Program-made: the position numbers and the translations under genes
Origin: an uncultured Alphaproteobacteria bacterium
Lineage (GTDB): Bacteria > Pseudomonadota > Alphaproteobacteria > HIMB59 > GCA-002718135
Reading direction: 5' to 3'
Assembly: GCA_902570155.1 (NCBI GenBank)
Contig: CACFXU010000001.1
Coordinates: forward strand, 169,360 to 233,359
Length of the DNA: 64,000 nucleotides
Shown: piece after piece, positions 9,903-39,794 of the stretch
How positions within the stretch are numbered: the stretch's first letter is position 1
How the letters are laid out: each line of letters starts with the position of its first letter
The notes under the pieces: model-generated
What the model saw: the letters and a program-made list of their open reading frames with translations, nothing else
What the model was told of the DNA's origin: nothing
Databases searched by the model: none

Positions 9903-10796
9903 TTACTTCATGCCTGTCAAAGTAATTCCTTCAATAAATCGTTTTTGTGCGATTATAAAAGCAACAATAAGAGGAACAGTTACAGTAACTATTGAAGCCA
10001 TCATAGGACCAAATTCGTCACTATCAATCCCACCTCTAAATTCTCTTATACCAAGTGGTGGAGTAAAGAGATCTCTATTTCCTGTTATTACCATACGAGG
10101 CCAGAAATAATCATTCCAGTGCGCAACAACTGAGAATATTGCAAAAGCAAGTAACGCTGGTATTGCAGTTGGAAGCATTACCTTCCATACGATTGCGTAC
10201 TCTCCCATGCCATCCATCCTGGCGGCATCAATTAATTCATCTGGAACAGTCATAAAGAATTGCCGCATTAAAAAAATTCCAAACACCGATATGGTCCAGG
10301 GGAGTATTAAGGCGGAATAAGTGTCAACTAATCCTGCCTGGGCCAACATAACATATAATGGAAGTGCAATTCCGTGAACAGGAATCAGTAAGCAAAATAA
10401 AACCATCGAGAAAACAAATTCTCGTCCGTAAAACCGTAACTTGGCGAGTGCATATGCGCACGGTAAGGCAACTAAAACCTGAATAATGAAAATTGATAAA
10501 GTAACAATGACACCATTCATTAAGTATCTAGGAATAGGGGCTTTTTCAAATGCAAACCAATAGTTGTATTGATATGGCTTCATTGTACATGTTTCTTCTG
10601 AATAACCAGTTTTAACACATACGGGAAACGTTTGAGTTTCTTGCGCACCAATAAGACCACCAGAAATTGATTGGATTTCTTGCTGAGATTTTAATGACAT
10701 AGAAACCATCATATAAAAAGGGAGCATTACTACGATAGCACCAATAATTAAGATTGCATGTTTCCAACCTTCTCCAATATATTGTTTAGCTTCCAT
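9903..10796 (-). CDS. CUT1-type ABC transporter permease (UgpE/MalG-like)
   Basis: 6 TM segments and an EAA loop (DELIDAARMDGMGEYAIVWKVMLP). Confidence 0.9.
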   Translation of the reverse strand: MEAKQYIGEGWKHAILIIGAIVVMLPFYMMVSMSLKSQQEIQSISGGLIGAQETQTFPVCVKTGYSEETCTMKPYQYNYWFAFEKAPIPRYLMNGVIVTLSIFIIQVLVALPCAYALAKLRFYGREFVFSMVLFCLLIPVHGIALPLYVMLAQAGLVDTYSALILPWTISVFGIFLMRQFFMTVPDELIDAARMDGMGEYAIVWKVMLPTAIPALLAFAIFSVVAHWNDYFWPRMVITGNRDLFTPPLGIREFRGGIDSDEFGPMMASIVTVTVPLIVAFIIAQKRFIEGITLTGMK

Positions 10797-11752
10797 TAAT
10801 AATGAACCCTCTTCTCAATGACATATCTTTGGAAAAACGTTAACACAAGAATAAATCCAATAAAGACAACAGTGATTGCTGCACCAATACTGGTTAAGTT
10901 TTGTTGAATAGCTTTTTCAAAGATTGCATACATCATGACATACGTTGTTTTTGATGGACCACCTTTAGTAAGTATCTCAATGGTATCAAATACTTGAAAT
11001 GTTCTAATGGTAGTAATAGTGACAACAAACAACGTTGTTGGACCAAGCATTGGCCATGTAACAAGTTTAAATTGCTCCCATGTAGATTTAGCCCCATCCA
11101 TTTCTGCAGCTTGGTATAACTCTCTTGGTATGCTTGTTAAGCCAGCTAAATATAAAACCATGTTAAAACCAAAAGCTTGCCAAATTCCTATGAAACATAC
11201 TGTCCAAATCGCAGTATTTTTTTGTTTTAACCAATATGGAAAATCCATGTTGTTTGCACATGCTACAGCGTACCAGCTTTCTTGTGAGTCTACCCACGGC
11301 AACCAATGAAAACCAAGAATGAATTCCCTAACTCCTCCACACCCATTTGCTAAAAAACTATTTACAATTCCTAATGTTGGATGAAGAGTAAATTCCCATG
11401 CAATTGCCATTGCAAGAAGAGTTGCCATAACTGGAAGAAAGAAAATTGTTTTATATATATCAGCGCCAAACCTTAGTGAATTTAAGAGCATAGCAGCACA
11501 TAATCCAAGTACAACAGAAATTGGAACGACAACAATAACATACGTCGCTGTGGCCCAAATCATTTTGACATAAGTTTTGCGATTGAACATCTTGTCATAA
11601 TTTTCTAGTCCAACCCACTCGAATGTTTTGTTTCCTAAATTATAGTCAGTAAAAGAAATTCCTCCTGCAAGAAAAAGAGGAAAAATTAAAATAATTATCA
11701 TCAGTATGATTGCTGGTGCAATAAACCATATGTGAGCTTTTGAATTATGCAT
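10796..11752 (-). CDS. CUT1-type ABC transporter permease (UgpA/MalF-like)
   Basis: EAA loop (ELYQAAEMDGAKSTWEQFKLVTWPML). Its stop overlaps the downstream permease start. Confidence 0.9.
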   Translation of the reverse strand: MHNSKAHIWFIAPAIILMIIILIFPLFLAGGISFTDYNLGNKTFEWVGLENYDKMFNRKTYVKMIWATATYVIVVVPISVVLGLCAAMLLNSLRFGADIYKTIFFLPVMATLLAMAIAWEFTLHPTLGIVNSFLANGCGGVREFILGFHWLPWVDSQESWYAVACANNMDFPYWLKQKNTAIWTVCFIGIWQAFGFNMVLYLAGLTSIPRELYQAAEMDGAKSTWEQFKLVTWPMLGPTTLFVVTITTIRTFQVFDTIEILTKGGPSKTTYVMMYAIFEKAIQQNLTSIGAAITVVFIGFILVLTFFQRYVIEKRVHY

Positions 11753-12878
11753 TAGTAAATTGAACTCTCATTCCTGCTTGATTAAATAGTAATGCTTTAT
11801 CTGAAACTCTTTTTATATTTACACTAGAACCGTTTGAAATTTGGTGTGTAAATTGTGGTAAGCCTCTTACAATTATTTTATTTGAACCGTCTTCAATATT
11901 TACATGAAAGAAAATATCTGAACCTAAATTTTCTCTATATGCAACGGTTCCACTAAATGTATTTTCATTACTTTCATTTGTAATTTCTAAATGTTCTGGT
12001 CGAATACCAATATGTAAATCTGTGTTACTTTCAGAACTTTTTCTTTTTAGATTAACGTTGAGAAAACTTATCATCCCACTAGAGTCCGCAGTTCCTTTAA
12101 ATATATTTATTTTTGGACTTCCAACAAATTGAGCCACACTTAATGAGGAAGGATTGTCATATACTTCTTGAGGCTTATCTAGTTGTAATAAATTTCCATC
12201 AATCATAACAGCCATTCTAGAGGACATAGTTAATGCTTCTGCTTGATCATGTGTTACGTAAACAAAAGTAGTTTTAAGTGAATTATGAAGCTCAGATAGT
12301 TCAGATCGCATGTGAACTCTCAGAGCCGCATCTAAATTTGAAAGAGGTTCATCCATTAAAAAGGCAACAGGCTCTCTAACCATAGCACGACCAAGAGCAA
12401 CTCTTTGTCTTTGACCACCTGACAATTGTCCTGGTTTTCTATCCAATAGTTCTGAAATTTTTAGAGTTTCAGAAGTTTTATTTACTAATTGATTTATAGA
12501 TTCTGTTTTCTCTTTTTTGCTTGGAGAAAAATTACCAATCAAGGGCAGTCTTTCAAATGCATTATAATCCCTTAGTCTTAATGGGGTTTCTAAATTTCTT
12601 CTTACTGTGAGATGAGGATAAAGAGCATATGACTGGAATACCATTGCCAAATCTCTTTCACTGGCTCTAACTCTATTTACATTTTTATTATCTATTAATA
12701 CATCACCTGAAGTCTGTTGTTCCAATCCTGCAATTATTCTAAGTAATGTAGATTTACCACAACCAGATGGACCAACTAATGTTAAGAATTCTCCATCGTT
12801 TATATCAACATTCAAATTATTAAGTACTTGTGTAGACCCAAATGACTTTGAAATATTTTTAAGTGATATTGTCCCCAC
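11745..12878 (-). CDS. CUT1-type ABC transporter ATPase (UgpC/MalK-like)
   Basis: Walker [10 protein letters not shown], signature LSGGQRQR, Walker B FLMDEPLSNLD, and a C-terminal MalK-like regulatory domain. GTG start is preceded by AGGGGGAA. Confidence 0.9.
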   Translation of the reverse strand: MGTISLKNISKSFGSTQVLNNLNVDINDGEFLTLVGPSGCGKSTLLRIIAGLEQQTSGDVLIDNKNVNRVRASERDLAMVFQSYALYPHLTVRRNLETPLRLRDYNAFERLPLIGNFSPSKKEKTESINQLVNKTSETLKISELLDRKPGQLSGGQRQRVALGRAMVREPVAFLMDEPLSNLDAALRVHMRSELSELHNSLKTTFVYVTHDQAEALTMSSRMAVMIDGNLLQLDKPQEVYDNPSSLSVAQFVGSPKINIFKGTADSSGMISFLNVNLKRKSSESNTDLHIGIRPEHLEITNESNENTFSGTVAYRENLGSDIFFHVNIEDGSNKIIVRGLPQFTHQISNGSSVNIKRVSDKALLFNQAGMRVQFTNA

Positions 12879-13054: not shown

Positions 13055-14296
13055 GTGTCCGATAATTTAGAAATTAATAAAAGAGAATATCCAAGCTCTT
13101 TCTCAAAAACTGCTATTGTTATATGCCTTGATGGTAGTCAAAAAGAGTATCTCGAAGAAGCATCAAAATCTAATCTTACACCAAATCTTGATAAATTAAT
13201 TGCAAGTGGTGAAAACCTACTTGTTCACAGCGCTATTCCAAGTTTTACAAATCCAAATAACATTTCGATTGTAACAGGCCAACCAAGTTCTGTTCACGGT
13301 ATATGCGGAAACTTCTTTTATACACCTGAGACGGGCGAAGAAGTAATGATGAATGATCCAAAATATATGCGAGCACCAACTATTTTTGAAAAATTTTACA
13401 ATTCTGGTTCTAAAATTGCTCTTGTTACTGCAAAAGACAAGTTGAGAACACTTTTAGGAAACGGATTAAGTTTTGATGATGAGAGAGCTATTTGTTTTTC
13501 TGCTGAAAAATCTGATCAAGCAACAAAAGATCTCAATGGTATAGATAATGTAAACGATTGGTTGGGGATGCCAGTGCCAGAAGTATATTCTGAAGGACTC
13601 TCTGAATTTGTAATGGCTGCAGGTGTAAAACTTCTTGAAGAGTTTAAACCAAATATTATGTATTTATCGACTACGGATTATATTCAACACAAATATGCAC
13701 CGGGAAATGAAACAGCAAATAAATTTTATGCAATGTTTGATAAATATATTGGTCTTTTAAATAAGGAGAATGTTTCTATAATCATCACAGCAGATCACGG
13801 AATGAAACCAAAATCAAAAGAAGATGGTTCACCTAATGCAATATTTTTACAAGATTATTTAGATAAAAAATTTGATCCAAACATGGCTAAAGTCATCCTA
13901 CCAATTACAGATCCATATGTTGTTCATCATGGTTCACTTGGTTCTTTTGCAACAATTTATTTAGAAGACAAGAGCAAGATAGATTCAGTTGTAAATGCTA
14001 TTAAAGAAATAAAAGATATAGAAGTTGTTTTAACAAAAGATGAAGGATGCTCTACTTACAATTTACCTCCTGATAGAATGGGAGATATTATATGTATGTC
14101 TTCAGAATTTATGACTATTGGTTCATCGGAAGATAAACACAATCTTTCTGGATTAAATGAACCTTTACGTTCTCATGGAGGACTCCATGAAAGAGAAGTG
14201 CCATTCATATCAAATTTAAAATTACAAAACTTAGATACTAGCAAACAATTATATAACTATGATGCATTTTATTATGCAATAAATGGAGCCCTATGA
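13055..14296 (+). CDS. phnA: phosphonoacetate hydrolase (alkaline-phosphatase superfamily)
   Basis: 413 aa. The nucleophile block [15 protein letters not shown] and metal-site TADHGM are typical of NPP/PhnA-type enzymes. It is translationally coupled (ATGA overlap) to the aldehyde dehydrogenase. GTG start. Confidence 0.75.
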
Positions 14297-15735
14297 TGCA
14301 CAAAAAAATGATTAATGAAGCAATGCGTATTGCTGGAGAAAAAGTTACTTCAGATAAAACAATAAATGTTGAGTACCCTTTTACAGGTGAAGTAATCGGA
14401 ACGGTTCCAGCCGGTACTGCAGAGCATGCAAGAAAGGCTTTAGATATTGCTGCAAATTATCAGCCTAAACTTACAAGATATGAGAGACAAAAAATTCTAC
14501 AAACTGCTGCAGAAGTACTTGTTAAAAGAAAAGAAGAAATTTCTGATATTATTACTTTAGAACTTGGTATCTCAAAACAAGATTCTTTATACGAAGTAGG
14601 AAGAGCTTTCGATGTATTTTCATTAACGGCTCAACTTTGTATTCATGATGATGGAGAAATATTTTCTTGTGATTTAACTCCGCATGGAAAAGCCAGAAAA
14701 ATATTTACCATAAGAGAACCTTTAACGGCAATCTCAGCAATCACCCCATTTAATCATCCTTTGAATATGGTAGCGCATAAAATTGCACCTTCAATTGCAA
14801 CTAATAATTGTACTGTATGTAAACAAACAGAATTAACACCTTTAACAGCAATGGTACTCGCCGATGTTTTATATGAAGCAGGTTTACCACCCGAAATGTT
14901 TTCAGTTGTAACTGGATGGCCTCAAGACATTGGATCAGAAATGATCAAAAATCCAAACATTGATCTAATTACTTTTACAGGCAGTGTGGGTGTAGGAAAA
15001 TTAATTGCTGAACAAGCTGGATACAAAAGAACAGTACTAGAGCTTGGCGGTAATGATCCATTAATTGTTTTAAATGACTTAGATGGTGATGATCTTAAAA
15101 AAGCTGTTGAACTAGCTGTTACTGGAGCAACGAAAAATTCTGGTCAACGTTGTACAGCTGTTAAAAGAATATTGGTTCAAGAATCCATTGCAGATCAATT
15201 TGTTGAAATGGCTCTTGAGCGTGCTAAGAAAATTAAATTTGGTGATCCTATGAATATGGAAACAGACTTAGGTACTGTTGTTAATGCTCAAGCTGCAGAA
15301 CTTTTTGATAAAAGAGTTTCTATGGCTGAAGAAGACGGTGCAAAAATTTTATATCACCCTGGAAGAAAGGGTGCTTTGTTACCTCCAATAGTTGTAGATC
15401 ATGTTGATCCTAAAAGTGAATTAGTTTTAGAAGAAACATTTGGTCCAGTTATACCAATCATTCGTGTGCCTAATGACGATGAAGCTGTAATGAAAATATC
15501 TAATTCAACCGCATTCGGATTATCATCTGGTGTATGCACAAATAACTTCATGAGAGCAAAAAAATATATTCAAGGCTTAAATGTTGGCACTGTAAATATT
15601 TGGGAAGTTCCAGGCTATAGAATTGAAATGTCTCCTTTTGGAGGAATTAAAGATTCAGGTCTTGGTTATAAAGAAGGTGTAATTGAAGCAATGAAAAGCT
15701 TTACTAATGTAAAAACCTTCTCACTACCCTGGTAA
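14293..15735 (+). CDS. phnY: aldehyde dehydrogenase, probable phosphonoacetaldehyde dehydrogenase
   Basis: ALDH catalytic blocks ELGGNDP and GQRCTAVKR. It overlaps the phnA stop, and phnW lies in the same locus. Confidence 0.7.
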
Positions 15736-15870
15736 AAATCATTTTTTCTCTAATTTTTCTTATTGCTGTGGAAAAATAAGCTTATTTTTTAGTAATATTT
15801 TCGTAATAAAATTGTAACCCTTTGGGGCTACATGTTAGATTAAATTATTATATTCAATCGGGAGGATTAA

Positions 15871-17124
15871 ATGAAAAAATTAATTACAGGATTGGCAGCC
15901 GTATTAGCTTTCGGTTTTTATGGTTCTGTTAATTCAGCTAAGTCTATTGAAATAGAAGTAGCTTATCCTTATTCAGGATTATTCGATGTTACGTTTCAAG
16001 CTATTATGCCAGAGTTTGAAAAAGCACATCCAGATATTCAAGTTAAATTTAGAGCAACTTATGAAAACTATGAGGATGCAACTGCAACAATCTTCAGAGA
16101 GTCTACTTCAGGTAATTTACCAGATGTAACAATGCAAGGTCTTAACAGACAGGCACCTCTAGTTGACAAAGGTATTGCTAAGTCTTTAGAGCCATTTATC
16201 GCAAAAGAAGCAGCTTTTGAAAAAGATGGTTACCATTCTGCTATGTTAAGTCTTTCAACATTCGGTGGTGAAGTTTATGGATTACCATTTTCTGTATCAA
16301 CACCAGTTGGATATTATAACATGGATTTATTAGCTGAAGCAGGTGTAGATAGTATTCCAACTAACTGGGACGAAGTTATTGCAGCATGTAATAAATTAGA
16401 AGCAGCAGGTAAAGGAACTCTATACTTTGGTTGGAACATTACAGGTAACTGGTTCCACCAAGCATTAATGCATACTCAGAATGTTCCAATGGTTAAAGAT
16501 GGAGCTGTAAATATGGGTGGAGATGCAGGACTTGCAACGTTAGAGCAAATGAAATCAATCATGAGCGGATGTAATATGCCAAACTATTCAATTGCTGATG
16601 GTCAAGCTGCGTTTAACGCAGGTACTATTGGTATGATGTTCTGGTCTACTTCAAGCTTGGGTTCAGTTAATGCTGCAAAGGCAGACTTTGTTTTAAAAAC
16701 TGCACCATTCCCTGGAATGGCTGGAGTAAACAATGGAACACCAGCAAGATTACCAGCAGGTGGAAACGCTGCAATGTTAGTGTCTACATCTGATGATCCA
16801 GCAAGAGTTGATGCTGCATGGACTTTCTTAAAGTTCATTACATCAGGTATCGGTGCTGCATTAGTTGCTGAAACAACTGGATATGTTCCACCAAACAAAG
16901 CAGCGAATGATTTATTAGGTGACTTCTATAGTCAAAACCCTAATAAACTTACTGCAGTTGAACAACTTCCACTTCTAGCTGATTGGTTTGCGTATCCTGG
17001 AGAAAATGGATTAGCTGTTACACAGGTAATCTATGATTTCACGGAAGAAATTGCTACAGGCGACGCTGATGATATGGCAGATCTTCAAGAAGAAATGATG
17101 GAAGAAATAAACGATCTTATGTAA
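15871..17124 (+). CDS. ABC transporter substrate-binding protein, family 1 (UgpB-like)
   Basis: Signal peptide, 417 aa, and strong SD (GGGAGGA). It has a CUT1-type SBP layout (GNLPDV, GLPFS.STPV.YYN). It is the only SBP available to the permease/ATPase operon at 9903-12878. Confidence 0.8.
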   Translation: MKKLITGLAAVLAFGFYGSVNSAKSIEIEVAYPYSGLFDVTFQAIMPEFEKAHPDIQVKFRATYENYEDATATIFRESTSGNLPDVTMQGLNRQAPLVDKGIAKSLEPFIAKEAAFEKDGYHSAMLSLSTFGGEVYGLPFSVSTPVGYYNMDLLAEAGVDSIPTNWDEVIAACNKLEAAGKGTLYFGWNITGNWFHQALMHTQNVPMVKDGAVNMGGDAGLATLEQMKSIMSGCNMPNYSIADGQAAFNAGTIGMMFWSTSSLGSVNAAKADFVLKTAPFPGMAGVNNGTPARLPAGGNAAMLVSTSDDPARVDAAWTFLKFITSGIGAALVAETTGYVPPNKAANDLLGDFYSQNPNKLTAVEQLPLLADWFAYPGENGLAVTQVIYDFTEEIATGDADDMADLQEEMMEEINDLM

Positions 17125-17154
17125 TTTGAGATTATTTATTATTAACTTTTTATT

Positions 17155-17187
17155 ACAGCGGCTTTATAAAAGCCGCTGTTTTATTTT
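17155..17187 (+). terminator. rho-independent terminator after the SBP gene
   Basis: acagcggcttt-ata-aaagccgctgt forms an 11-bp stem, followed by tttatttt. Confidence 0.75.
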
Positions 17188-17211
17188 AAATTTAAATGGG
17201 AGTAAAAATAG

Positions 17212-18291
17212 ATGCCTCTTACAACAACTACAATAGGTGCTTATCCAAAACCTAAACAAACACCCATTCAAGATTGGTTTTTAGGGACAAAATCAGAAGA
17301 AGAGAAAAAAGCATCAAAAGGATTATTATCAAATTGGTCACCTGGCGCATATGAAAAAGCATTAGAGTCTGCAGGTGCGGATGCTGAAAAATTATTTTTA
17401 GCAGCAATTAAAGAAGTTATAACTGATCAAGTAAGTGCGGGTATTGATGTTCCAACAGATGGGGAAGTTAGGCGCGAGAGTTATGTATTATATCAATGTC
17501 GATTTTTAAATGGTGTAAGTTTTAAGGAAGTTACACATAAGTCAGTAAGACAGGGTGCGTTCGAAGCTGACCTTCCAACTATTGTTGCACCAATTTCAAG
17601 TAAAGAAATACGTATGCATTTAGACTGGAAGAGTGCACAACAATTTACAAAAAACCCAGTTAAAATTACGCTACCTGGACCAATGACAATTACAGATTCA
17701 ATTGCCAACAATTACTATGATGACATGAAAAAACTTGGTTTTGATTTAGCATTAGCCCTCAATAAAGAAGTTAAAGCACTTGTAGATGCAGGTTGTCAGT
17801 ATATTCAAATTGATGAACCAGTATTTGCTAGAAAGCCCGATGAAGCTCATTCTTACGGTATGGAAAATTTAGAAAGAATGATGCATGGTATTCCTAAAGA
17901 AGTGCAACGCGTTTGCCATATTTGTTGTGGTTATCCTAACTCATTAGATTCAGAAGGGTATAAAAAGGCTGATCTAGATGCTTATGATAGAATTGCATCA
18001 CTTGTAGATGATTCAACTATTGATGAAGTATCTTTAGAAGATTCACATAGGCATAATGATTTAAATCTTTTAGAAAAATTTACTAAAACAAAAGTAATTT
18101 TTGGATTTATTGATATTGCAAAAAGCAGAATGGAATCTGTTGAAGAAGTAAGAGTTCGTATCAAAGATTCACTTGAACATATTGATGAACACCGTTTAAT
18201 AGCTGCACCAGATTGTGGTTTAGGTTTCTTTACACGAGAACAAGCAATTGAGAAAATGACAATTTTAACTAAAGCGGCAAAATCAATTTAA
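17212..18291 (+). CDS. single-domain MetE-like (cobalamin-independent methionine synthase C-terminal domain family) Zn-dependent alkyltransferase
   Basis: 359 aa, starting TTTIGAYPKP. The IDEP block is present, and the Zn ligand pattern is preserved: H-x-C in CHICCGY, E in SLEDS, C in APDCGLG. Confidence 0.7.
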   Translation: MPLTTTTIGAYPKPKQTPIQDWFLGTKSEEEKKASKGLLSNWSPGAYEKALESAGADAEKLFLAAIKEVITDQVSAGIDVPTDGEVRRESYVLYQCRFLNGVSFKEVTHKSVRQGAFEADLPTIVAPISSKEIRMHLDWKSAQQFTKNPVKITLPGPMTITDSIANNYYDDMKKLGFDLALALNKEVKALVDAGCQYIQIDEPVFARKPDEAHSYGMENLERMMHGIPKEVQRVCHICCGYPNSLDSEGYKKADLDAYDRIASLVDDSTIDEVSLEDSHRHNDLNLLEKFTKTKVIFGFIDIAKSRMESVEEVRVRIKDSLEHIDEHRLIAAPDCGLGFFTREQAIEKMTILTKAAKSI

Positions 18292-18295
18292 GGTA

Positions 18296-19408
18296 ATGTG
18301 GAATTATTTTAACCCTGTTGAAATTATCTTTGGAAAAAATAGATTTACAGAAGTACATGATGCTCTTAAAAATAAGAACTACATCATAATCACTCATCCA
18401 GAAGAAATTTTTAAAAAATATAGCGATGAATTAAAATCTTCTTCAAATCCACCTTTATCCATTATGACGGATGTTCAGCCTAATCCAGATTATAAGGATA
18501 TTTTAGAGCTACAAAATAAATTTTCTTCAATCAATGAATCGGTAGATTATATTTTAGCTATAGGTGGTGGCTCTGTTACAGACACAGCTAAAGCAATTGC
18601 TGCATTTAAAGATAAACAAGAATATCTAACAGATTTCGTTCGTAATAAGCAAAATCCAAGAGTCGAAAATCCAATCAAGATTATTGCAATACCTACAACT
18701 TCAGGAACATCAAGTGAGCTTACGTGTTGGGCCACAATATGGGATAAAGAAAAAAATAATAAATTATCTTTGGCGCATAAATCACTTTATGCAGAAAAAG
18801 CAATTATCGATCCATCTATTATGGTTGATAAGCCTTTAGGTTTGACCATTTCAACTGGTTTAGATGCTCTCTCCCATTCAATGGAAAGTATTTGGAATAT
18901 TAATGCGAACCCAATTTCTGCTTCACATGCAATACAAGCATCAAAATTAGTATTAGAAAATTTACCACTTCTCACTAAAGATTTAAGAAATGTTGAATTA
19001 CGCTCAAACATTGCACTGGCATGCGTTCATGCTGGCTTAGCGTTTTCCAATACAAAAACTGCTATTGCGCACAATCTATCATACCCTGTGACGCTCAATT
19101 ACGGCATTCAACATGGTATTGCTTGCTCATTTACATTACCCATGATTACTAAAAGTATGGTTGGAATTGATAGTGTAGCTGAAGAAAGACTAAAACTAAT
19201 TTTTAACGATAACCTAGAGAATGCTGCAAATCATCTGAGTGAATTTATGCGTTCTTTAGAGGTTCCTCTTAACTTAAATGAAATAAAAGTTCCTGTTCAA
19301 GAATGGAATAATATAGTAGATGATGCGTTTTTAGGGGAACGAGGTAAAAACTTTATTGGCAATAAAGAAGCCTTCATCTCTTCTGCTAAATCAATGGGAC
19401 TTTATTAG
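18296..19408 (+). CDS. group III iron-containing alcohol dehydrogenase (phosphonoacetaldehyde-reductase-like)
   Basis: AIGGGSVTDTAK, IPTTSGTSSE, and His-rich metal motifs (DALSHSMES, AHNLSYP, QHGIA). The N-terminus MWNYFNPVEIIFG resembles PhpC/FomC-type enzymes. The family call is solid; the substrate is inferred. Confidence 0.75.
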   Translation: MWNYFNPVEIIFGKNRFTEVHDALKNKNYIIITHPEEIFKKYSDELKSSSNPPLSIMTDVQPNPDYKDILELQNKFSSINESVDYILAIGGGSVTDTAKAIAAFKDKQEYLTDFVRNKQNPRVENPIKIIAIPTTSGTSSELTCWATIWDKEKNNKLSLAHKSLYAEKAIIDPSIMVDKPLGLTISTGLDALSHSMESIWNINANPISASHAIQASKLVLENLPLLTKDLRNVELRSNIALACVHAGLAFSNTKTAIAHNLSYPVTLNYGIQHGIACSFTLPMITKSMVGIDSVAEERLKLIFNDNLENAANHLSEFMRSLEVPLNLNEIKVPVQEWNNIVDDAFLGERGKNFIGNKEAFISSAKSMGLY

Positions 19409-19410
19409 TA

Positions 19411-20517
19411 ATGAAAAAAAATTTCAGGTTTTATGATAACAGACAAAAATACTTATTATTTGTCACAACAACAAATGAAAAAAATCAAATTGCTGATGCG
19501 ATACGCCCTCACGTAAATAAAATTAAACCTCAAAAACCTGGTATAAAAATATTTGATGCTGGTATGGGTGATGGTTCCTTACTTATGAATGTTATGCGTC
19601 AGTGCCACGAGGCTAAGCCTAACGTACCTTTATTAGTTTGCACAAAAGAAATAAGCATAGAAGATGTAAGATTAGGTTTAGAAAAATTACCCGACAGGTT
19701 TGTTGAACATAAGAATACGGTTTTTGTCATTTCAAATCTACACTACGCTGAAGCTGCAAACCTAAAATCAAAAAATGAAGTTAAACAGAAAAAAATTAAT
19801 TGGAATATTATTAAATTAAAAGGAGATACCTCTCTTGAATTTGCCCAACAATTAAGAAAACAAAATGAATTTTTAGAAAAAAAATGGAATATAGAAATTA
19901 ATAAAAAGTCAGGTAACCATACTTATAAAGAGCCTTCAGTCATGGTTATCTACCGCGAAGATCAAGAATTTAATGTAAATGAATTAATACCTACCAAAAA
20001 AAAATCAGATAATAAATTTGATCTTATAATTGCTTCACAGCCTTATCGTTCAAGAATCACAGCAGAAAAGAAATCAAAATATGTCATCGAACCAATGATT
20101 AGAGCGTTAAAATCAAAAGGGAAATTATTAACTATTCATGCTTCAGGAAAAGATCCTGCTAATGAAATAATTCGTAAAATTTGGCCAAAAGAGGACCCAT
20201 TTCCTTCTCTTGGAAATAGTATCATTTCTTATCTTAAGAAAAATTTAGATAAAGATTTATTAAGAAGATTATCTTTTGGAGAAAAAAGAATTATTAAATG
20301 TAAATTGAGAGCTCTACCAACAGAAATCAGCGGAGGTATAGCGACATCATTAGTTTTTTCTGCTTGGAATGCCTCCATATATGTCAATCAAATGGATGAC
20401 GACAAAGTAATGAAAGTAGAAAAAACTAAAAACTATGAAAAAATTGTTCAAAACATTGTTGCTAAAAATAAAGGTCTTTATTTTAACAATGAAATATTTG
20501 TAATCGAAAAAAAATAA
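19411..20517 (+). CDS. hypothetical protein with class-I methyltransferase-like Rossmann motifs
   Basis: IKIFDAGMGDGSLL looks like SAM motif I, followed by an acidic residue after strand 2 and a DLIIASQPY block. I cannot recognise a family. It starts 2 nt after the ADH stop. Confidence 0.35.
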   Translation: MKKNFRFYDNRQKYLLFVTTTNEKNQIADAIRPHVNKIKPQKPGIKIFDAGMGDGSLLMNVMRQCHEAKPNVPLLVCTKEISIEDVRLGLEKLPDRFVEHKNTVFVISNLHYAEAANLKSKNEVKQKKINWNIIKLKGDTSLEFAQQLRKQNEFLEKKWNIEINKKSGNHTYKEPSVMVIYREDQEFNVNELIPTKKKSDNKFDLIIASQPYRSRITAEKKSKYVIEPMIRALKSKGKLLTIHASGKDPANEIIRKIWPKEDPFPSLGNSIISYLKKNLDKDLLRRLSFGEKRIIKCKLRALPTEISGGIATSLVFSAWNASIYVNQMDDDKVMKVEKTKNYEKIVQNIVAKNKGLYFNNEIFVIEKK

Positions 20518-20521
20518 TTTT

Positions 20522-21310
20522 TTATTTAAACCAATTAACTTCTGTTTTTAAAAAATCCTCTGTATGAATAATTAAGGCGTCAGATCGAATTATTGCAACA
20601 TTATAATTTGTATCTGTATTAGCCGTTCCTAAACGATATTCATTTGAAAAGTTAGGTATTAGAGGAGACCAAGTACTTCTTGGGGAAGAAAAAGTAATAC
20701 CACAATAAGAGCCAGAACTTGTAATATGTTGATGACCAAAAAAAATATGTTTTATTATCTTATTATTTTTCGTTAAAATTTTTTGAAACTCTTTTTTTTG
20801 TTGTAATCCTATTCCATCACTTTCCTCTTTTACTAATGCCAGTGGATTATGATGCATAAAGATATACGTATCTGTATTAGTCTTACTTAAAATATTATTT
20901 AACCATTCTTGCCTCTCTTCACAGTAATGTCCTTGGTGAGTATTAATTAGATTAGTATCTATAAAAATTAAACGTTTATTATCTATATCCTTAAAGTATT
21001 GAATAAATCCATTTGGATCGGTTTCAATATTAGGAAAGTTTATTTTAAACTCATCTCTGTTATCATGATTACCTATAATTAACTGAGGACTCAAATTCTT
21101 TGGCAGGTCTGCTTCATCAATTATTTTTAAAAATAACTGATAAGAATCTTTATCACCTAAGTCTGTAATATCACCAGTGATGGCAAATAAATCTGCATCA
21201 CCATGATTATTTTTTATATGAGTTAATGCTTTTTTAAATTTACTGACAGGATCTATGCCATGAATCTTATCTATATAAATATGAGGGTCTGAAAGGTGAA
21301 TAATTTTCAT
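20522..21310 (-). CDS. calcineurin-like metallophosphoesterase, CpdA/GpdQ-type phosphodiesterase
   Basis: The full motif set is present: HLSDPH, TGDITDLGD, IGNHDNR, FMHHNP, FGHQHI. Confidence 0.8.
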   Translation of the reverse strand: MKIIHLSDPHIYIDKIHGIDPVSKFKKALTHIKNNHGDADLFAITGDITDLGDKDSYQLFLKIIDEADLPKNLSPQLIIGNHDNRDEFKINFPNIETDPNGFIQYFKDIDNKRLIFIDTNLINTHQGHYCEERQEWLNNILSKTNTDTYIFMHHNPLALVKEESDGIGLQQKKEFQKILTKNNKIIKHIFFGHQHITSSGSYCGITFSSPRSTWSPLIPNFSNEYRLGTANTDTNYNVAIIRSDALIIHTEDFLKTEVNWFK

Positions 21311-21330
21311 TATTAAATATAAATTTATAA

Positions 21331-21963
21331 TTAGATCGCAGTTTTAAAATAAATATACTTATTAAATTCCTCTTTTAAGTCGATGCTAACTCTTGCATGT
21401 ACTTTACCTTGTTTTCCTTGAAACGATTGTTTTTCTGTAACTGGAAACACCCCTTCATGCCAAATATTTGGATGAATATACAAACCTTTTGATCCGTCAC
21501 AATAAAATGCTTTAAAATGTTCTGGTTCAATGTCGTCTGTCGGTAAGGCTAAAGGGCAAATAAATGGTTTATTTTCTTCAGGAAAGAAAAGCTGACCTCC
21601 ATCAGGATGATAATTTGCATGCCATAAAAAAATTTTTGTTGGATCTGAATATTTATCTTTTTGTAATTCTTGATCAGGATTATTGGCATAACCCAGTATA
21701 TATTTTCCATCTACTTCATAATCGCTCTTATGTTGAACAGCATTATTTTGCCCATAAAGCACGTCACCTTGCCACCAGGTATCAAAAGAACCTTCGGTAG
21801 TTCCACCTTCATTACCAGTTCCCTCTTCTATGTCGCGCCATCCTTGTTTTGGCCAAGTAACAATTTCAATATCGCTATTTTCAAAACTATCGATTAAATA
21901 CCCATATCCTGTAAGATTTTCATTTGTTGCTTTAACTAATGGTATTTCAATTTCTTTTGTCAT
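21331..21963 (-). CDS. ureidoglycolate-lyase (AllA)-like cupin-fold protein, function unknown
   Basis: The C-terminal half (YHPDGGQLFFP...FKAFYCDGSKGLYIHPNIWHEGVFP) parallels my recollection of E. coli AllA (ERHPLGTQAFIP...[24 protein letters not shown]). It has a longer N-terminal half than AllA. Confidence 0.5.
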   Translation of the reverse strand: MTKEIEIPLVKATNENLTGYGYLIDSFENSDIEIVTWPKQGWRDIEEGTGNEGGTTEGSFDTWWQGDVLYGQNNAVQHKSDYEVDGKYILGYANNPDQELQKDKYSDPTKIFLWHANYHPDGGQLFFPEENKPFICPLALPTDDIEPEHFKAFYCDGSKGLYIHPNIWHEGVFPVTEKQSFQGKQGKVHARVSIDLKEEFNKYIYFKTAI

Positions 21964-21970
21964 TGTTTTG

Positions 21971-23068
21971 TTAGTTTAATGTTAATCCCAATTCAGTAAC
22001 AACTTCTTTTACTGCCTCTATAGTATCTATCATGTCTTGTTCATCTAAATTACCAATACACCCAATTCTAAAAGTTTCTGCCACTGTTAGTTTTCCAGGA
22101 TAAATTAAAAAATCTTTTTCACTAAGAGCATTATAAAATTTCTCAAAATTAAATTTAGGATCATTAGGTTGTTTAAACGTAATAATAATTGGTGCCTGCA
22201 AATTATCAGGAAGTAATTGCTCAAATCCTAACTCTTTCATTCCATTACAAATAATTTCACAATTTTTTTTATATCTTTTGCCCCGTCCCTCTACACCGCC
22301 TTGTTCTTTATGTTCTTCAATAGCTTGGTTGAATGCAGCCAATACGTGTGTTGGAGGTGTAAATCGCCATTGTTTATTTTTTTCCATTGCTTGCCATTGA
22401 TCATATAAGTCTAGACTTAGTGAGTGACTATTGCCTTTTGCATTTTGAATAACTTCATTTTTAACAAGAATGAAACCAACACCTGGCACACCTTCTAAGC
22501 ATTTGTTTGATGAAGCGGCTACAGCATCAAAAGTAATTGTTTTAGAACTTAAGGGTAATGCACCAAAGGCACTCATTGCATCGATGAATAACGATAAATT
22601 TTTCCCTTCAACCAATTTTGCAATGTCTTCAATAGGATTTAAAATACCCGATGTTGTTTCACAATATACAGCAAAGACGTGTGTTAAGTTGTTGCTATCA
22701 ATTAACTCTTCAATTTTATTGATGTCATGTACTTCATGTTCAGCAACTTCATATTCAATAAAATCTCTCCCTAAATATGTGCACATTTTTTTCATTCTTT
22801 GTCCGTAAGCACCATTGATCAGAATCAGAATTTTAGAATCTTTTTGAGTAAGAGAGCTCACCATCGACTCTACAGCAAAAGTCCCACTTCCCTGCATTGG
22901 AACACATTGATATTTATCTTCACCATCTATTAATTTAACAAGGGAATCTCTAATTGATGCATTGAGATCAATAAATTTTGTATCTCTCGAACCCCAATCA
23001 TGAAGCATTGCCTCTTTTGTTGACATCGATGTCGTGAGAGGCCCAGGGGTTAATAATTTTTTATCCAT
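21971..23068 (-). CDS. phnW: 2-aminoethylphosphonate--pyruvate transaminase
   Basis: 365 aa class-V aminotransferase with N-terminal LLTPGPLTTS and PLP-lysine block SSNKCLEGVPGVGF. Confidence 0.8.
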   Translation of the reverse strand: MDKKLLTPGPLTTSMSTKEAMLHDWGSRDTKFIDLNASIRDSLVKLIDGEDKYQCVPMQGSGTFAVESMVSSLTQKDSKILILINGAYGQRMKKMCTYLGRDFIEYEVAEHEVHDINKIEELIDSNNLTHVFAVYCETTSGILNPIEDIAKLVEGKNLSLFIDAMSAFGALPLSSKTITFDAVAASSNKCLEGVPGVGFILVKNEVIQNAKGNSHSLSLDLYDQWQAMEKNKQWRFTPPTHVLAAFNQAIEEHKEQGGVEGRGKRYKKNCEIICNGMKELGFEQLLPDNLQAPIIITFKQPNDPKFNFEKFYNALSEKDFLIYPGKLTVAETFRIGCIGNLDEQDMIDTIEAVKEVVTELGLTLN

Positions 23069-23156
23069 TAAATATTTACTTAATAAATATTATTATAAAT
23101 TTGATCAATCTTATTAAAGTTGGAATTGAATTTATTTTCTAATAAGTTAATTATAA

Positions 23157-23732
23157 ATGAGAATGGAAGAAAATATCGTAGATTATCTCTTAGATCTTTT
23201 GAAAACAAAAGGTGCTGATATTCAATATGGTAATGAGGATGTCACACAGCTTGAGCACGCACTCCAATGCGCTGAACTTGCTGAAAAAAATAAATTACCA
23301 GGACCAACAATTGCTGCAGCATTACTGCATGATGTTGGTCACCTTATCTATGAGGACGGCGATCCCATTCATGAAGGCAAAGATGGTCATCATGAAAATT
23401 TAGGTGCTGATTTTTTAAAAAAATATTTTGGTGAGGATGTTATTTTACCAATTAGAGCACATGTTGACTCAAAAAGATATTTATCAAGTGTTGAAGAGGG
23501 TTATTATGATAGCCTATCAGAAGCATCGAAACTTTCATTAAAAGTTCAAGGCGGTCCTTTCACAAAAGAAGAAGCAGATGCATTTATAAGTAAACCTTTT
23601 ATGGATGAAGCAATAGAGCTTAGGAGATTTGATGATTTAGCAAAAGTTCTAGATAAAAAAACTCCCGATGTTGAACATTTCCGTCCCTATTTAGAAGAAG
23701 CAAGAGAGTCTTTTTTAGCTAAACAAGCGTAA
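23157..23732 (+). CDS. HD-domain protein of the PhnZ/TmpB type (mixed-valent di-iron C-P cleaving oxygenase family)
   Basis: 191 aa. The pattern QLEHALQCAELA...AALLHDVGH...HHENLGADFL...RAHVDSKRYL...LSEASKLSLKVQGGP follows the PhnZ layout as I recall it. Confidence 0.65.
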   Translation: MRMEENIVDYLLDLLKTKGADIQYGNEDVTQLEHALQCAELAEKNKLPGPTIAAALLHDVGHLIYEDGDPIHEGKDGHHENLGADFLKKYFGEDVILPIRAHVDSKRYLSSVEEGYYDSLSEASKLSLKVQGGPFTKEEADAFISKPFMDEAIELRRFDDLAKVLDKKTPDVEHFRPYLEEARESFLAKQA

Positions 23733-24257
23733 ATGCAATTTAGCAATTATGATTTTATTGACTCTAAGTCATTTGCAGGAAAAATTATATTAACTTCTTT
23801 CCCAGGTCTTAACTCTAATGGTTTATTTGAAGAAACAATTTTAGCAAACGAATTAGAAATATTTAAAAATAATAATTGTAGTTCTATTACTTCTTTTGTT
23901 GAAGATAGCGAATTTGAAAAATTGTGTGATAAAACTTTGTTTGTCAAAAATATTTATGAACATAAATTACATTGGTACCATTTACCCATTTATGACATGG
24001 GAGCACCAGATAAAGATTTTAAATATAAATGGGAAACAACAAAAGTTTTATTAAAGAACGAATTGATAGATGGTAAAAATATAGTCTTACATTGTCGTGG
24101 AGGAAAAGGAAGAGCTGGCACTATAGCTGCTATTTTACTTGTTGAATTTAATTATGAAAAACAAGAAGCTATTAATCTTGTACGATCAAGAAGAAAAGGA
24201 GCTATTGAGTCAAAAATCCAAGAAGATTTTATTTTTTCTTATCGAGCAGTTAATTAA
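23733..24257 (+). CDS. Cys-based (dual-specificity/PTP-fold) phosphatase
   Basis: HCX5R(S/T) P-loop (LHCRGGKGRAGT) with an upstream Asp loop (IYDMGAPD). Its ATG directly abuts the stop of the HD gene (TAAATG). Confidence 0.75.
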   Translation: MQFSNYDFIDSKSFAGKIILTSFPGLNSNGLFEETILANELEIFKNNNCSSITSFVEDSEFEKLCDKTLFVKNIYEHKLHWYHLPIYDMGAPDKDFKYKWETTKVLLKNELIDGKNIVLHCRGGKGRAGTIAAILLVEFNYEKQEAINLVRSRRKGAIESKIQEDFIFSYRAVN

Positions 24258-31118: not shown

Positions 31119-32147
31119 CTAAACTTTTACCATGAATTCTAAAAATTCATTCACACATTTGTCCCAAGTTAATTTAAGAGAAAAATTTCTACAATCAACT
31201 CTTTTTACTTTAAGTGCCTTCTTAACTGATTGTAACAAGTCATTATCTAAAGTGTTAATCTTTTCATCTGTTAATACATCTATGGGCCCGGTTACTGGAT
31301 ATGCAGCAATTGGTGTTCCACTAGCCAATGCTTCAAGTATTACATTTCCTAAAGTGTCTGTTTTAGAAGGAAAGACAAATACATCTGCGTTTGCATAATA
31401 TTTCGCTAGTTCATCTCCAGTTTTTACACCGACAAAATTTATTTCAGGATATTTATTAATATATTTTTGTAATTCGGGACCATCACCCACAACAGTTTTA
31501 TTATAATTTCCTTTAAGTTTTAAAAATTCTTCAATATTTTTTTCAATTGCTACTCTACCAACATAAGTCAGTTGTCTATCTTTACTGTTTGTGTCTCTTT
31601 TATTTGGATTAAATAATTCTGTATCAACACCTCTATTCCAAACTACTAAATTTTTAAAATTATATTTTTTTAACTCATTTAGCATTGAAACTGATGGAAC
31701 AAGAACTCTTTCTGAATCACTATGTAGTCTTCTTAATATGGAGTATGTAAATCTCTTTGGGATAAAAGCTCTTTGCTTAATGTAGTCAGGAAAACGGGTG
31801 TGAAAGGAAGAAGTGTATTGTAGTTTATTTTTAAGACAGTACTTACGACCAGCAAAACCTACCGGACCTTCAGTCATTATATGAACAATATCTGGATTAA
31901 ATTCTTTAAAAAATTTTTCAGTAACTTTTTTAGTATTGTAAGAAATTTTTATTTCTTTGTACCAAGGATAACTAAAATTATTAAACATCTCAGGATGTAA
32001 TATTTTAATTTCAAAACCTTTTTTTTCTAGAATAGGTATAACGCTTTGAAATGTCGTAACTACGCCATTTACCTGAGGAACCCACGCATCACTAATTAAC
32101 GCGATTTTTTTAGGCTGCATCCTCTTTAATTTTTCGTCTTTCTTCAA
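31119..32147 (-). CDS. agt: GT4-family glycosyltransferase, probable glycolipid synthase of the PlcP-Agt lipid-remodelling pair
   Basis: It has a GT-B fold and the E-x7-E region (ETLGNVILEALASGTPIAAY). It lies immediately downstream of and overlapping plcP. The start could be the second Met (32120). Confidence 0.7.
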   Translation of the reverse strand: MKKDEKLKRMQPKKIALISDAWVPQVNGVVTTFQSVIPILEKKGFEIKILHPEMFNNFSYPWYKEIKISYNTKKVTEKFFKEFNPDIVHIMTEGPVGFAGRKYCLKNKLQYTSSFHTRFPDYIKQRAFIPKRFTYSILRRLHSDSERVLVPSVSMLNELKKYNFKNLVVWNRGVDTELFNPNKRDTNSKDRQLTYVGRVAIEKNIEEFLKLKGNYNKTVVGDGPELQKYINKYPEINFVGVKTGDELAKYYANADVFVFPSKTDTLGNVILEALASGTPIAAYPVTGPIDVLTDEKINTLDNDLLQSVKKALKVKRVDCRNFSLKLTWDKCVNEFLEFMVKV

Positions 32148-32922
32148 AAGAAATTAATTTTAATTTTTCTCTTTCTTCGGGCCAATTAAGAATAGATAAA
32201 TTGCCAATTTCATCTTCAACGAGTGCTGTGCAACTTTCAATCCAGTCACCATCATTACAATAGAGAACACCATTTAATTCCTTTATTTCAGGTCTATGTA
32301 TATGCCCGCACACAACAACATCGGCATTTTCTCTTCTTGCCCTATCAGATACAGCAAACTCAAAATTACTAATAAAGTTTGTTGCATGCTTTGTTTTCTT
32401 TTTTAAATATTGAGACAGTGACCAATAAGATAAACCCATCTTTCGTCGAATAAAATTAAATACATTATTTAACTTTAGTAAATATTCATAAAGTGCTGAT
32501 CCCACTTTGGCTAACCATCTTGCATTAATGATCACAGCATCAAATTCATCTCCGTGTGTAATCAGTACTTTCCTTCCATCAGCTAATTGATGTGTATCTT
32601 CATTTTTGATTGAAATTTCTCCAAAGGAAAAATTTGTAAAATCTTTTAATACTTCATCATGATTTCCTGGGATAAGCACTACCCTAGTTCCATTTTTCGC
32701 TTTCTTTAAAACTTTTTGAACCACGTCGTTATGTTCTTGTGGCCAATACATTTTCTTACGCATGCGCCATCCATCAACAATGTCGCCTACTAAAAATAAA
32801 TATTCCGAATCTGTTTCTTCTAAGAATTCTAAAAGCATTTTGCTTTTACAACCACTGGTTCCTAGGTGGGTATCCGAAATCCAAATTGTGCGGTAAAATT
32901 TTTTATTACTTTCAAATTTCAT
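32110..32922 (-). CDS. plcP: LpxH-like metallophosphoesterase, probable phospholipase C PlcP
   Basis: Motifs ISDTHLG, VGDIVDGW, IPGNHDE, ITHGDEFD, VCGHIHRP. Pairing with a GT4 gene matches the P-stress lipid renovation operon described in SAR11 and other marine heterotrophs. Confidence 0.75.
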   Translation of the reverse strand: MKFESNKKFYRTIWISDTHLGTSGCKSKMLLEFLEETDSEYLFLVGDIVDGWRMRKKMYWPQEHNDVVQKVLKKAKNGTRVVLIPGNHDEVLKDFTNFSFGEISIKNEDTHQLADGRKVLITHGDEFDAVIINARWLAKVGSALYEYLLKLNNVFNFIRRKMGLSYWSLSQYLKKKTKHATNFISNFEFAVSDRARRENADVVVCGHIHRPEIKELNGVLYCNDGDWIESCTALVEDEIGNLSILNWPEEREKLKLISFEERRKIKEDAA

Positions 32923-34530: not shown

Positions 34531-34531
34531 T
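34514..34531 (+). promoter_or_regulatory. Pho-box-like repeat upstream of pstS (CTGTAAT-AAAT-CCTTAAT)
   Basis: The first half-site matches CTGTCAT at 6/7. It lies within the last codons of phoR, 40-60 nt upstream of the pstS start. Confidence 0.25.
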
Positions 34532-34572
34532 ATATATTCTGTAGGACAACCTTATTTTAAATGAGGCTTAAT

Positions 34573-35568: not shown

Positions 35569-35590
35569 AAATCTTAAATTTTTATAAAAT

Positions 35591-35616
35591 GGGGGCATAC
35601 AAGCCCCCTTTTTTTT
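35591..35616 (+). terminator. rho-independent terminator/attenuator between pstS and pstC
   Basis: gggggc-atacaa-gccccc is a perfect GC stem, followed by T8. Confidence 0.8.
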
Positions 35617-35631
35617 AATACTAAGTTATAA

Positions 35632-38278: not shown

Positions 38279-38281
38279 AAC

Positions 38282-39753: not shown

Positions 39754-39794
39754 ATTGTAATAGAATTGTAACAAAAATTTAATAGTAGAGATTC

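Follow-up and report, generated by a model that had tools for sequence, protein, structure and literature searches.

Several enzyme systems that degrade 2-aminoethylphosphonate (AEP), a common natural phosphonate, are described. Ancillary "phosphonate breakdown factors" recur in clusters of the phnW, phnX and phnYA type, namely the lyase PbfA, the FAD oxidoreductases PbfB, PbfC and PbfD, the racemase PbfF and the dehydrogenases PbfG/PhpC (PMC8154272, PMC10590968, PMC12366243, PMC13576164). PbfD-type enzymes oxidize N-methyl-AEP or AEP to phosphonoacetaldehyde via imines, the hydrolysis of which is said to be spontaneous (PMC10590968). The oxidative TmpA/TmpB and PhnY*/PhnZ pathways consist of two enzymes and require no third protein. 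In the ocean, the AEP genes phnA, phnW, phnY and phnZ rank with the most widely distributed genes of phosphonate metabolism, and Pelagibacterales hold a large share of them (PMC9381506). The island formed by these genes in Pelagibacterales is thus already known. Here, we analyzed a stretch of 64,000 nucleotides from contig CACFXU010000001.1 of an uncultured alphaproteobacterium (hereafter the window), in which phnW is followed by a gene for a cupin related to the ureidoglycolate lyase AllA and by a gene for a metallophosphoesterase (hereafter the esterase). What is new here is a recurrent, misannotated accessory gene, the cupin, together with a lineage-specific diesterase.

Both proteins have described relatives. 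AllA (PF04115 / IPR007247; PDB 1XSQ, 1YQC, 2BDR) is described as a Ni2+ metalloenzyme that catalyzes an elimination in which urea leaves a C(OH)-N centre; an AllA-related DUF4867 protein binds Fe via two His and two Glu residues, and for related cupins an opening of hemiacetals with bond changes like those of AllA was proposed (PMC11968277). For the esterase, the described relatives are GpdQ of Enterobacter aerogenes (PDB 2DXL, 2ZO9, 3D03), SpdA, CpdA and Rv0805.

The phnW operon and its conservation in SAR11

The window has a G+C content of 30% and derives from a SAR11-type genome. The genes in question are arranged head to tail:

21971..23068, minus strand: phnW, 2-aminoethylphosphonate:pyruvate transaminase, 365 aa, leading the putative operon, stop codon TAA
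21331..21963, minus strand: AllA-superfamily cupin, 210 aa, without a signal peptide, stop codon TAA
20522..21310, minus strand: metallophosphoesterase of class III (GpdQ/SpdA/Rv0805-like), 262 aa, predicted to be cytoplasmic, stop codon TAA

The open reading frames (ORFs) and the spacers of 7 nt (CAAAACA on the coding strand) between phnW and the cupin gene and of 20 nt between the cupin and esterase genes are exactly as given by the sequence-only reading that preceded this analysis. Owing to these tiny spacers, the conserved gene order and a scan that revealed no terminator-like site between the three genes, the trio looks like a single transcription unit, as that reading had proposed. Promoter-like matches were no more common than in shuffled sequence, which likewise applies to the terminator scan, and no Rfam family was found between 9 and 27 kb of the window. 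All three genes are real and under strong purifying selection, with ratios of nonsynonymous to synonymous substitution rates (dN/dS) of 0.04-0.10 when compared with SAR11 orthologs of 80-96% amino-acid identity.

PhnW scored above the cut-off of three NCBIfam equivalog models (NF010006, 510.8 bits at a cut-off of 296; TIGR03301, 466.4 bits; TIGR02326, 458.7 bits). Two further genes complete the pathway:

13055..14296, plus strand: phnA, phosphonoacetate hydrolase, which cleaves the C-P bond downstream of PhnW (TIGR02335, 469.5 bits; cut-off 407.55)
14293..15735, plus strand: phnY, phosphonoacetaldehyde dehydrogenase (TIGR03250, 798.7 bits; cut-off 635.65)

Thus, the PhnW-PhnY-PhnA route is complete within positions 13055-23068, with all three enzymes above their equivalog cut-offs. 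PhnW makes phosphonoacetaldehyde, which PhnY and PhnA, encoded 5-10 kb away, convert to acetate and phosphate. Among the window ORFs scanned (at least 120-150 aa, over the 64 kb) no HAD-type phosphonatase PhnX, and hence no PhnW-PhnX pathway, and no C-P lyase gene was found, in agreement with the earlier statement on both. However, the notion that the cupin and the esterase stand in place of phnX proved misleading, as PhnY, PhnA and a PhnZ-like oxygenase are encoded in the same island. Because this route is complete, PhnW has downstream enzymes despite the absence of phnX and C-P lyase, and cleavage of the C-P bond is independent of the cupin and the esterase.

Apart from the window, the cupin is 100% identical in several single-cell genomes labeled "uncultured Alphaproteobacteria" (AG-893-E11 and others), and slightly more distant homologs stem from records labeled Pelagibacteraceae. 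Several SAR11 lineages are represented, with identities of 71-89% for the cupin and 53-93% for the esterase. We compared 45 SAR11-type loci, many of which come from near-identical single-cell genomes. PhnW is encoded immediately upstream of the cupin in all 39 loci that retain this side, at a spacing of -17 to +15 nt. The esterase gene lies directly 3' of the cupin gene, 15-109 nt away, in 34 of the 45 loci; in seven others it is shifted away by 3.2-6.3 kb, and four lack it. In the seven displaced variants (L015, L017, L018, L022, L024, L026, L035), which carry an esterase form of 61-68% identity, the insert encodes a UgpB/UgpA/UgpE-like transporter; that of L022 comprises a 481-aa protein with two GDPD segments along with a UgpC-like ATPase, permeases and a binding protein.

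A further layout was found in SAR11 contigs from metagenomes and single amplified genomes (L084-L091), where phnW, cupin and esterase genes occur without PhnZ and the PhnY-PhnA genes are convergent. In these loci an OpuAC-type (quaternary-amine) binding protein and a fused permease are encoded ahead of phnW, an 811-aa DMGDH-like flavoenzyme just upstream of phnW (L084-L087) and a choline-kinase-like protein nearby (L088-L089). This layout hints at an N-methylated AEP, such as trimethyl-AEP, as substrate of the island. As PhnZ is missing from some variants while phnW and the cupin gene persist, the constant core of the island is phnW-cupin, usually followed by the esterase gene.

An AllA-related cupin in phosphonate clusters

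The PF04115 (Ureidogly_lyase) match that underlies the annotation of the cupin extends over residues 119-182, that is 64 of its 210 residues (39.6 bits; cut-off 23). A profile search against the PDB returned AllA structures alone (E 1e-13), and the AlphaFold2 model of the protein (mean predicted local distance difference test score, pLDDT, 93.4) retrieved AllA by Foldseek as best match (2bdr, E 2.5e-9; 1xsq, E 1.6e-8), followed by the Fe-binding DUF4867 protein. In the profile alignment NYHPDGGQ of the cupin pairs with ERHPLGTQ of AllA, and WHQ with WHH. By its model, the cupin has the AllA fold with the conserved H-P-x-G-x-Q / W-H core; the homologous beta-barrels have H-P-x-G-x-Q-x-F-x-P and W-H in common. 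The cupin probably binds a metal, and, as in AllA, its active site is predicted to be metal-assisted and probably of the lyase type.

Another view would be that the protein is an ordinary ureidoglycolate lyase serving purine or nitrogen scavenging that lies beside phnW by chance. The shared family match, fold and motifs agree with this, as does an adenosine deaminase gene at positions 425-1534 of the window. However, eight AllA NCBIfam models gave 22-33 bits against cut-offs of 160-315, aligning to residues ~108-182, and the best AllA equivalog score in the full-length test for the PRK03606 / PRK13395 family was 32.8 bits (cut-off 230); the scores are thus roughly ten-fold under the equivalog cut-offs. 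The cupin is ~50 aa longer than AllA, its N-terminal half differs and the C-terminal third alone aligns. Moreover, its clade carries D121, where AllA has Leu, as well as K184, Q185 and H189, which AllA lacks. No allantoin or other purine-catabolic pathway gene was found in the window or among the scanned neighbors of the 97 fetched loci, so that the purine-catabolic surroundings named beforehand as a reason to abandon the phosphonate link did not turn up; the recurrent neighbors are phosphonate genes, and their linkage in separate lineages with tmpAB, phnW, pbfD and pbfA is not expected by chance. Given the missed cut-offs, the partial alignment, the clade-specific residues and the lack of allantoin genes, the cupin is by sequence a homolog but not an ortholog of AllA, and we consider the chance neighborhood of a genuine ureidoglycolate lyase extremely improbable.

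The cupin family is of modest size, with 704 clusters at 50% identity (E<=1e-3), and is marked by the conserved motifs NYHPDGGQ, WH(Q/E) and KQGxVHA, which in the protein of the window read N117-YHPDGGQ-124, W168-H169 and K184-QGKVHA-190. To survey its genomic surroundings, one genome per species was scanned with an alignment of 12 cupin sequences; a 32-sequence alignment proved too diverse as a query. At least 566 relatives were found and the best 80 were fetched, 46 of which come from outside Pelagibacteraceae and are 51-58% identical.

Judged by the recurrence that characterizes an ancillary phosphonate breakdown factor, the cupin occurs in all SAR11-type loci and lies in phosphonate clusters at 16 of the 46 other loci, in Alpha-, Beta- and Gammaproteobacteria, whereas the esterase is confined to SAR11. 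In ten loci of Leisingera, Ruegeria, Amylibacter, Hoeflea and a Rhodobacteraceae metagenome-assembled genome, the cupin gene directly follows that of a TmpB-type HD oxygenase. Eight of these have a TmpA dioxygenase gene preceding tmpB, a divergent LysR gene and the cupin gene as the last of the operon, with TmpA and TmpB at 600 and 362 bits, both above their NCBIfam cut-offs; the other two (L059, L083) lack TmpA, and one more locus holds a tmpB remnant. PhnW is encoded next to or near the cupin in five non-SAR11 loci (L039, L041, L051, L062, L082). Among them, L041 also encodes the AEP transporter protein PhnS2 and PhnA/Y/Z; the cluster of L062 includes PbfA (670 bits) and phn_lysR, and a DMGDH-like enzyme is encoded immediately upstream of its cupin. 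A TIGR03364 FAD oxidoreductase of the PbfD type is specified by the gene right after that of the cupin in L050 and L051 (465 and 412 bits, respectively), and DMGDH-like FAD enzymes adjoin the cupin in L058, L062, L080 and L082. By a rough estimate, ~1% of random genes would have a phosphonate gene no more than 10 kb away. Hence, with 16 of 46 loci in several separate lineages and three kinds of phosphonate cluster, the association of the cupin with phosphonate genes is strong.

In a neighbor-joining tree, the topology of which follows taxonomy, phosphonate-linked cupins are intermingled with unlinked ones. A restriction of the clade to phn neighborhoods, which had been suggested as a check, was not borne out, as outside SAR11 about one third of the loci are phosphonate clusters.

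Some neighbors of the cupin fall outside these patterns. Directly after the cupin gene, the unrelated loci L055 (10622-11557) and L092 (6674-7723, with an 8-nt overlap) carry a gene of the PF02826 2-hydroxyacid-dehydrogenase family, to which the 1-hydroxy-2-aminoethylphosphonate (HAEP) racemase PbfF belongs; when tested as PbfF, both gave generic 2-hydroxyacid dehydrogenase matches alone in NCBIfam. In L055 a choline-sulfatase-like gene comes next. In the Hoeflea locus L074, tmpA-tmpB-cupin is followed by a gene (10641-11477) for a small alkaline-phosphatase-superfamily protein with weak matches to PafA and iPGM, a phosphoesterase of another kind at the position held by the metallophosphoesterase in SAR11. 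A homolog of 45% identity that keeps the NYHPDGGQ motif (P0135) is encoded on a compact eukaryotic contig (L096 / L097) with TBP, HMG-box and XPG genes. As this contig is eukaryotic, the cupin family appears to extend to marine picoeukaryotes.

On the other side of phnW, the following features matter for what the cupin may do:

23069..23156: divergent intergenic region of 88 bp between phnW and the PhnZ-like gene
23157..23732, plus strand: PhnZ/TmpB-family HD-domain diiron oxygenase, 191 aa, divergent from phnW
23733..24257, plus strand: Cys-based dual-specificity-phosphatase-like (DSP/PTP-like) protein, 174 aa, with HCx5R at residues 120-127 (PF22784, 49 bits; PF22785, 33.3 bits)

The intergenic region presumably holds the promoters of both divergent genes. 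Blocks TTAACTTAT(A/T)AG and TTGAT(A/C)A are partly conserved in it among SAR11 lineages that share just 70-85% identity in the flanking genes, and may represent a regulator site. The HD oxygenase scored 202.3 bits with TIGR03276 (cut-off 214.6), 157.5 with the TmpB model and 153.5 with the PhnZ1 model; it holds the HD motif and, like the enzymes of the TmpA/TmpB and PhnY*/PhnZ pathways, the Y24xxE27 substrate loop (YGNE, residues 24-27). Unlike these pathways, a partner hydroxylase is missing from the SAR11 island: with a genuine TmpA as tblastn query, the best match to a TmpA/PhnY*-type hydroxylase (TauD/BBOX) in the window had an E value of 0.65, and the SAR11 loci yielded none within 10 kb. 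The phosphatase-like ORF, which starts one base past the end of the PhnZ-like ORF, is conserved and adjoins PhnZ in SAR11 loci.

The missing hydroxylase raises the idea that the cupin itself is an O2-dependent non-haem-iron enzyme that makes the 1-hydroxy-phosphonate for the PhnZ/TmpB-type oxygenase and so replaces PhnY*/TmpA in SAR11. A PhnZ/TmpB-like gene adjoins the cupin in most SAR11 loci and in the ten Rhodobacterales/Hoeflea loci, a TmpA/PhnY*-type gene is lacking in the window, in SAR11 loci within 10 kb and in the TmpB-cupin loci L059 and L083, and the cupin clade shows the pattern H119-x-D121 ... H169 ... K184, which AllA lacks (H-P-L there). Cupin-fold mononuclear iron enzymes that act on phosphonates, namely HEPD, MPnS and HppE, provide a precedent. 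However, the triad in this pattern is putative, known from sequence, and the sole characterized relative of the cupin is a lyase and not an oxygenase. Furthermore, the SAR11 islands without PhnZ (L084-L091) keep phnW, cupin and esterase, the loci L036, L039, L050, L051, L062 and L082 combine the cupin with phnW, pbfD or pbfA but lack an HD oxygenase, and a functional-looking TmpA is already present beside it in eight loci. Together, these points make an iron-dependent hydroxylation by the cupin quite unlikely.

The esterase and its phosphorus-stress surroundings

The esterase matched PF00149 with 64 bits, and all five metallophosphoesterase motifs claimed for it were located (D8xH10, G46D47xxD50, G80N81H82D83, H153H154, G192H193xH195). 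They hold all seven metal-ligand positions found in GpdQ, SpdA, CpdA and Rv0805, with which the protein also shares similar length and a cytoplasmic location. The best solved relatives in the PDB are GpdQ (E 4.4e-13, 52.6 bits) and Rv0805 (E 1.3e-12), which agrees with the initial assignment to the GpdQ/CpdA type and places the protein in class III. At the level of equivalogs, SpdA matched over its full length with 174.3 bits (cut-off 400) and CpdA with 63.5 bits (cut-off 225), both below their cut-offs. In contrast to GpdQ and SpdA, to which the homology is remote, the clade of the esterase is restricted to SAR11 and embedded in the phnW operon: nearly all of its 177 matches are marine and SAR11-like. 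Outside the GNHD motif, no significant similarity was found to the PlcP-like esterase encoded at 32110-32922, and a paralogous relation between the two was dismissed.

The remainder of the island and the relevant surroundings comprise the following features:

9903..12878, minus strand: Ugp-like ATP-binding cassette (ABC) transporter, with permeases at 9903-10796 and 10796-11752 (PF00528) and a UgpC-like ATPase at 11745-12878
15871..17124, plus strand: UgpB-like ABC substrate-binding protein (NCBIfam UgpB as best match, 66 bits, far under the cut-off of 411)
17212..18291, plus strand: MetE catalytic-domain-like methyltransferase, 359 aa (PF01717, 121.9 bits)
18296..19408, plus strand: PhpC-type Fe-alcohol dehydrogenase (TIGR03405, 364.6 bits; cut-off 423.7)
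19411..20517, plus strand: conserved protein with class I S-adenosylmethionine-dependent (SAM) methyltransferase fold, 368 aa, convergent with the esterase gene at a 4-nt gap
31119-32922, minus strand: PlcP-like metallophosphoesterase (32110-32922) and GT4 glycosyltransferase
33478-40478, plus strand: phoR, pstS, pstCAB, phoU and phoB
59966-60721: GDPD enzyme

The UgpC model was the best match of the ATPase at 11745-12878 (386.4 bits). Ugp-like genes thus lie in the island and, in the displaced variants described above, between cupin and esterase. GpdQ, too, is presumably found in the genomic company of Ugp-type transport genes, a likeness to the SAR11 esterase.

As the esterase has no signal peptide, its substrates must be imported. 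It would act as a cytoplasmic binuclear-metal diesterase on esters that the Ugp-like transporter encoded in the island takes up. Candidate esters are glycerol esters of AEP or ordinary glycerophosphodiesters, the hydrolysis of which would yield a free AEP-type phosphonate or a phosphomonoester, respectively. Given the recurrence of Ugp-like genes beside the esterase, with GDPD in L022, a glycerophospho(no)diester or a phosphonate monoester is a plausible substrate. The proposed release of AEP from its esters therefore gains suggestive backing from these transporter genes, while the best named family, SpdA, speaks for another substrate.

That other substrate would be a cyclic nucleotide. The esterase could be a 2',3'- or 3',5'-cyclic nucleotide phosphodiesterase or a general scavenging diesterase of the Pho regulon with no phosphonate-specific role, whose place in the phnW operon would simply reflect that the whole region is a phosphorus-stress island. 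Besides the full-length SpdA match of 174 bits and the 63.5 bits with CpdA, the surroundings fit this, as the window holds pstSCAB-phoU-phoB, phoR, ppk1, ppx, the PlcP-like esterase with its glycosyltransferase and GDPD, and outside SAR11 the esterase is unlinked to the cupin or phnW. However, the SpdA and CpdA scores are far under their cut-offs, the place after phnW-cupin is kept in SAR11 lineages whose esterases have diverged to 53-61% identity, and the inserts that displace it are Ugp-like transporter genes (with GDPD in L022) and not nucleotide genes. On this evidence, we regard a nucleotide or general scavenging role as somewhat unlikely.

Genes of phosphorus stress make up the rest of the window, with PhoU_div/PHO4, ppk1, ppx, phoR and pstSCAB-phoU-phoB; the whole window is a SAR11 phosphorus-scavenging region. 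The metallophosphoesterase and GT4 pair at 31119-32922 resembles the PlcP-Agt lipid-remodeling pair of phosphate-starved marine bacteria. The PhpC-type enzyme is by sequence a probable 2-hydroxyethylphosphonate dehydrogenase; degradative PhpC homologs oxidize 2-hydroxyethylphosphonate to phosphonoacetaldehyde (PMC13576164). The module of UgpB-like, MetE-like and PhpC-type genes (15871-19408) is variably present between SAR11 lineages and missing in L001, L028 and L031; in the non-SAR11 locus L058, too, a MetE-like gene of 48% identity is found in the vicinity of the cupin. No family above cut-off was found for the 368-aa protein in the library scans; its AlphaFold2 model (pLDDT 77.4) matched histamine N-methyltransferase best in Foldseek (E 2.2e-9). 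With 5157 database matches and an FDAGMGDGS motif, it is a very abundant "hypothetical protein" of SAR11, and in L084 a PF02574 homocysteine S-methyltransferase occupies its place.

Proposed roles of the cupin and the esterase

The best overall explanation of these data is one operon in a SAR11 phosphonate island, in which the cupin and the esterase would be ancillary enzymes that widen what enters the PhnW-PhnY-PhnA pathway. We advance it tentatively, at somewhat less than an even chance. Translationally coupled to phnW in all SAR11 islands compared and recurrent in tmpAB, pbfD and pbfA clusters of other bacteria, the cupin probably takes part in the natural phosphonate use of these organisms, and it is a good candidate for a so far undescribed phosphonate helper enzyme. 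Since it recurs in hydrolytic (phnW, pbfD, pbfA) as well as oxidative (tmpA-tmpB) clusters, its substrate would be an AEP-type or N-methylated AEP-type compound; that it acts on some member of the AEP family at all appears fairly likely.

Regarding its chemistry, the most parsimonious proposal is that the cupin performs an AllA-like, base- and metal-assisted breakdown of C(OH)-N species, for which the carbinolamine or imine intermediates of amine oxidoreductases en route to phosphonoacetaldehyde are candidates. By analogy with AllA, this idea would fit the pbfD and DMGDH-like neighbors and the presence of PhnY-PhnA, yet in this specific form we consider it unlikely. The N-carbamoyl aminophosphonate that had been put forward as substrate is unsupported, as the cupin also occurs in tmpA-tmpB operons, the quaternary-amine substrate of which cannot be N-acylated. 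Retro-Abramov C-P cleavage of 1-hydroxyphosphonates, Hofmann-type trimethylamine elimination and ring-opening of phosphonoglycan sugars were set aside, as no evidence supported them.

Several points weigh against this explanation. The reactions of both enzymes and the co-transcription of the trio are predictions from sequence and genomic context. The window encodes no FAD amine oxidoreductase and the tmpA-tmpB chemistry involves no known free carbinolamine; therefore, the proposed cupin reaction does not explain every context, notably the minimal SAR11 island and the tmpAB operons. Thirty of the 46 non-SAR11 loci are not linked to phosphonate genes, nor do they share a recurrent partner (Pfam census of 113 neighbors: EamA 7, DAO 3, M20 3), and all distant homologs examined (<=46% identity, one of them eukaryotic) are without phosphonate linkage. 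The esterase is missing in all fetched cupin loci outside SAR11 as well as in four SAR11-type loci, and thus is not functionally tied to the cupin; moreover, its best named family is the 2',3'-cyclic-nucleotide diesterase SpdA.

Like the Pbf enzymes, the cupin carries an unrelated annotation and recurs in clusters of the phnW, phnX and phnYA type, and it sometimes lies beside pbfD or pbfA (L050, L051, L062). In contrast to them, it has a fold unrelated to that of any described Pbf enzyme, also occurs in oxidative tmpA-tmpB operons, and goes unmentioned in the corresponding papers (PMC8154272, PMC10590968, PMC12366243, PMC13576164). The phosphonate literature searched comprised the papers on PbfA, PbfB-D, PbfF and PbfG/PhpC, a review of 2023, marine surveys and the paper on the AEP transporter. 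In line with the statement that the AllA-like protein has no precedent in phosphonate metabolism, this literature contained no link between it and phosphonates, and no mention of a PF04115 protein, a cupin or a metallophosphoesterase in AEP clusters, the discovery paper of TmpA/TmpB not being covered. The name PbfE, the letter skipped in the series PbfA-G, is absent from the papers of the Peracchi group and from the review, so that an unpublished or inaccessible report may exist.

The cupin and the esterase are small and soluble, with homologs in cultivable and genetically tractable Roseobacters. The cupin is currently annotated as an enzyme of purine catabolism; knowledge of its reaction would correct a systematic misannotation and extend a well-studied pathway by one step or substrate. 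Likewise, the substrate of the esterase bears on how cells free AEP from its esterified forms in lipid head groups and glycans, in which it mainly occurs. The most far-reaching outcome would be that the AllA-fold cupin is a new phosphonate-transforming metalloenzyme, most strikingly a 1-hydroxylase of AEP or N-methyl-AEP that is unrelated to PhnY*/TmpA and represents the missing first enzyme of the SAR11 PhnZ route. We regard this as a long shot; if true, much of the AEP turned over in the sea would pass through an undescribed reaction.

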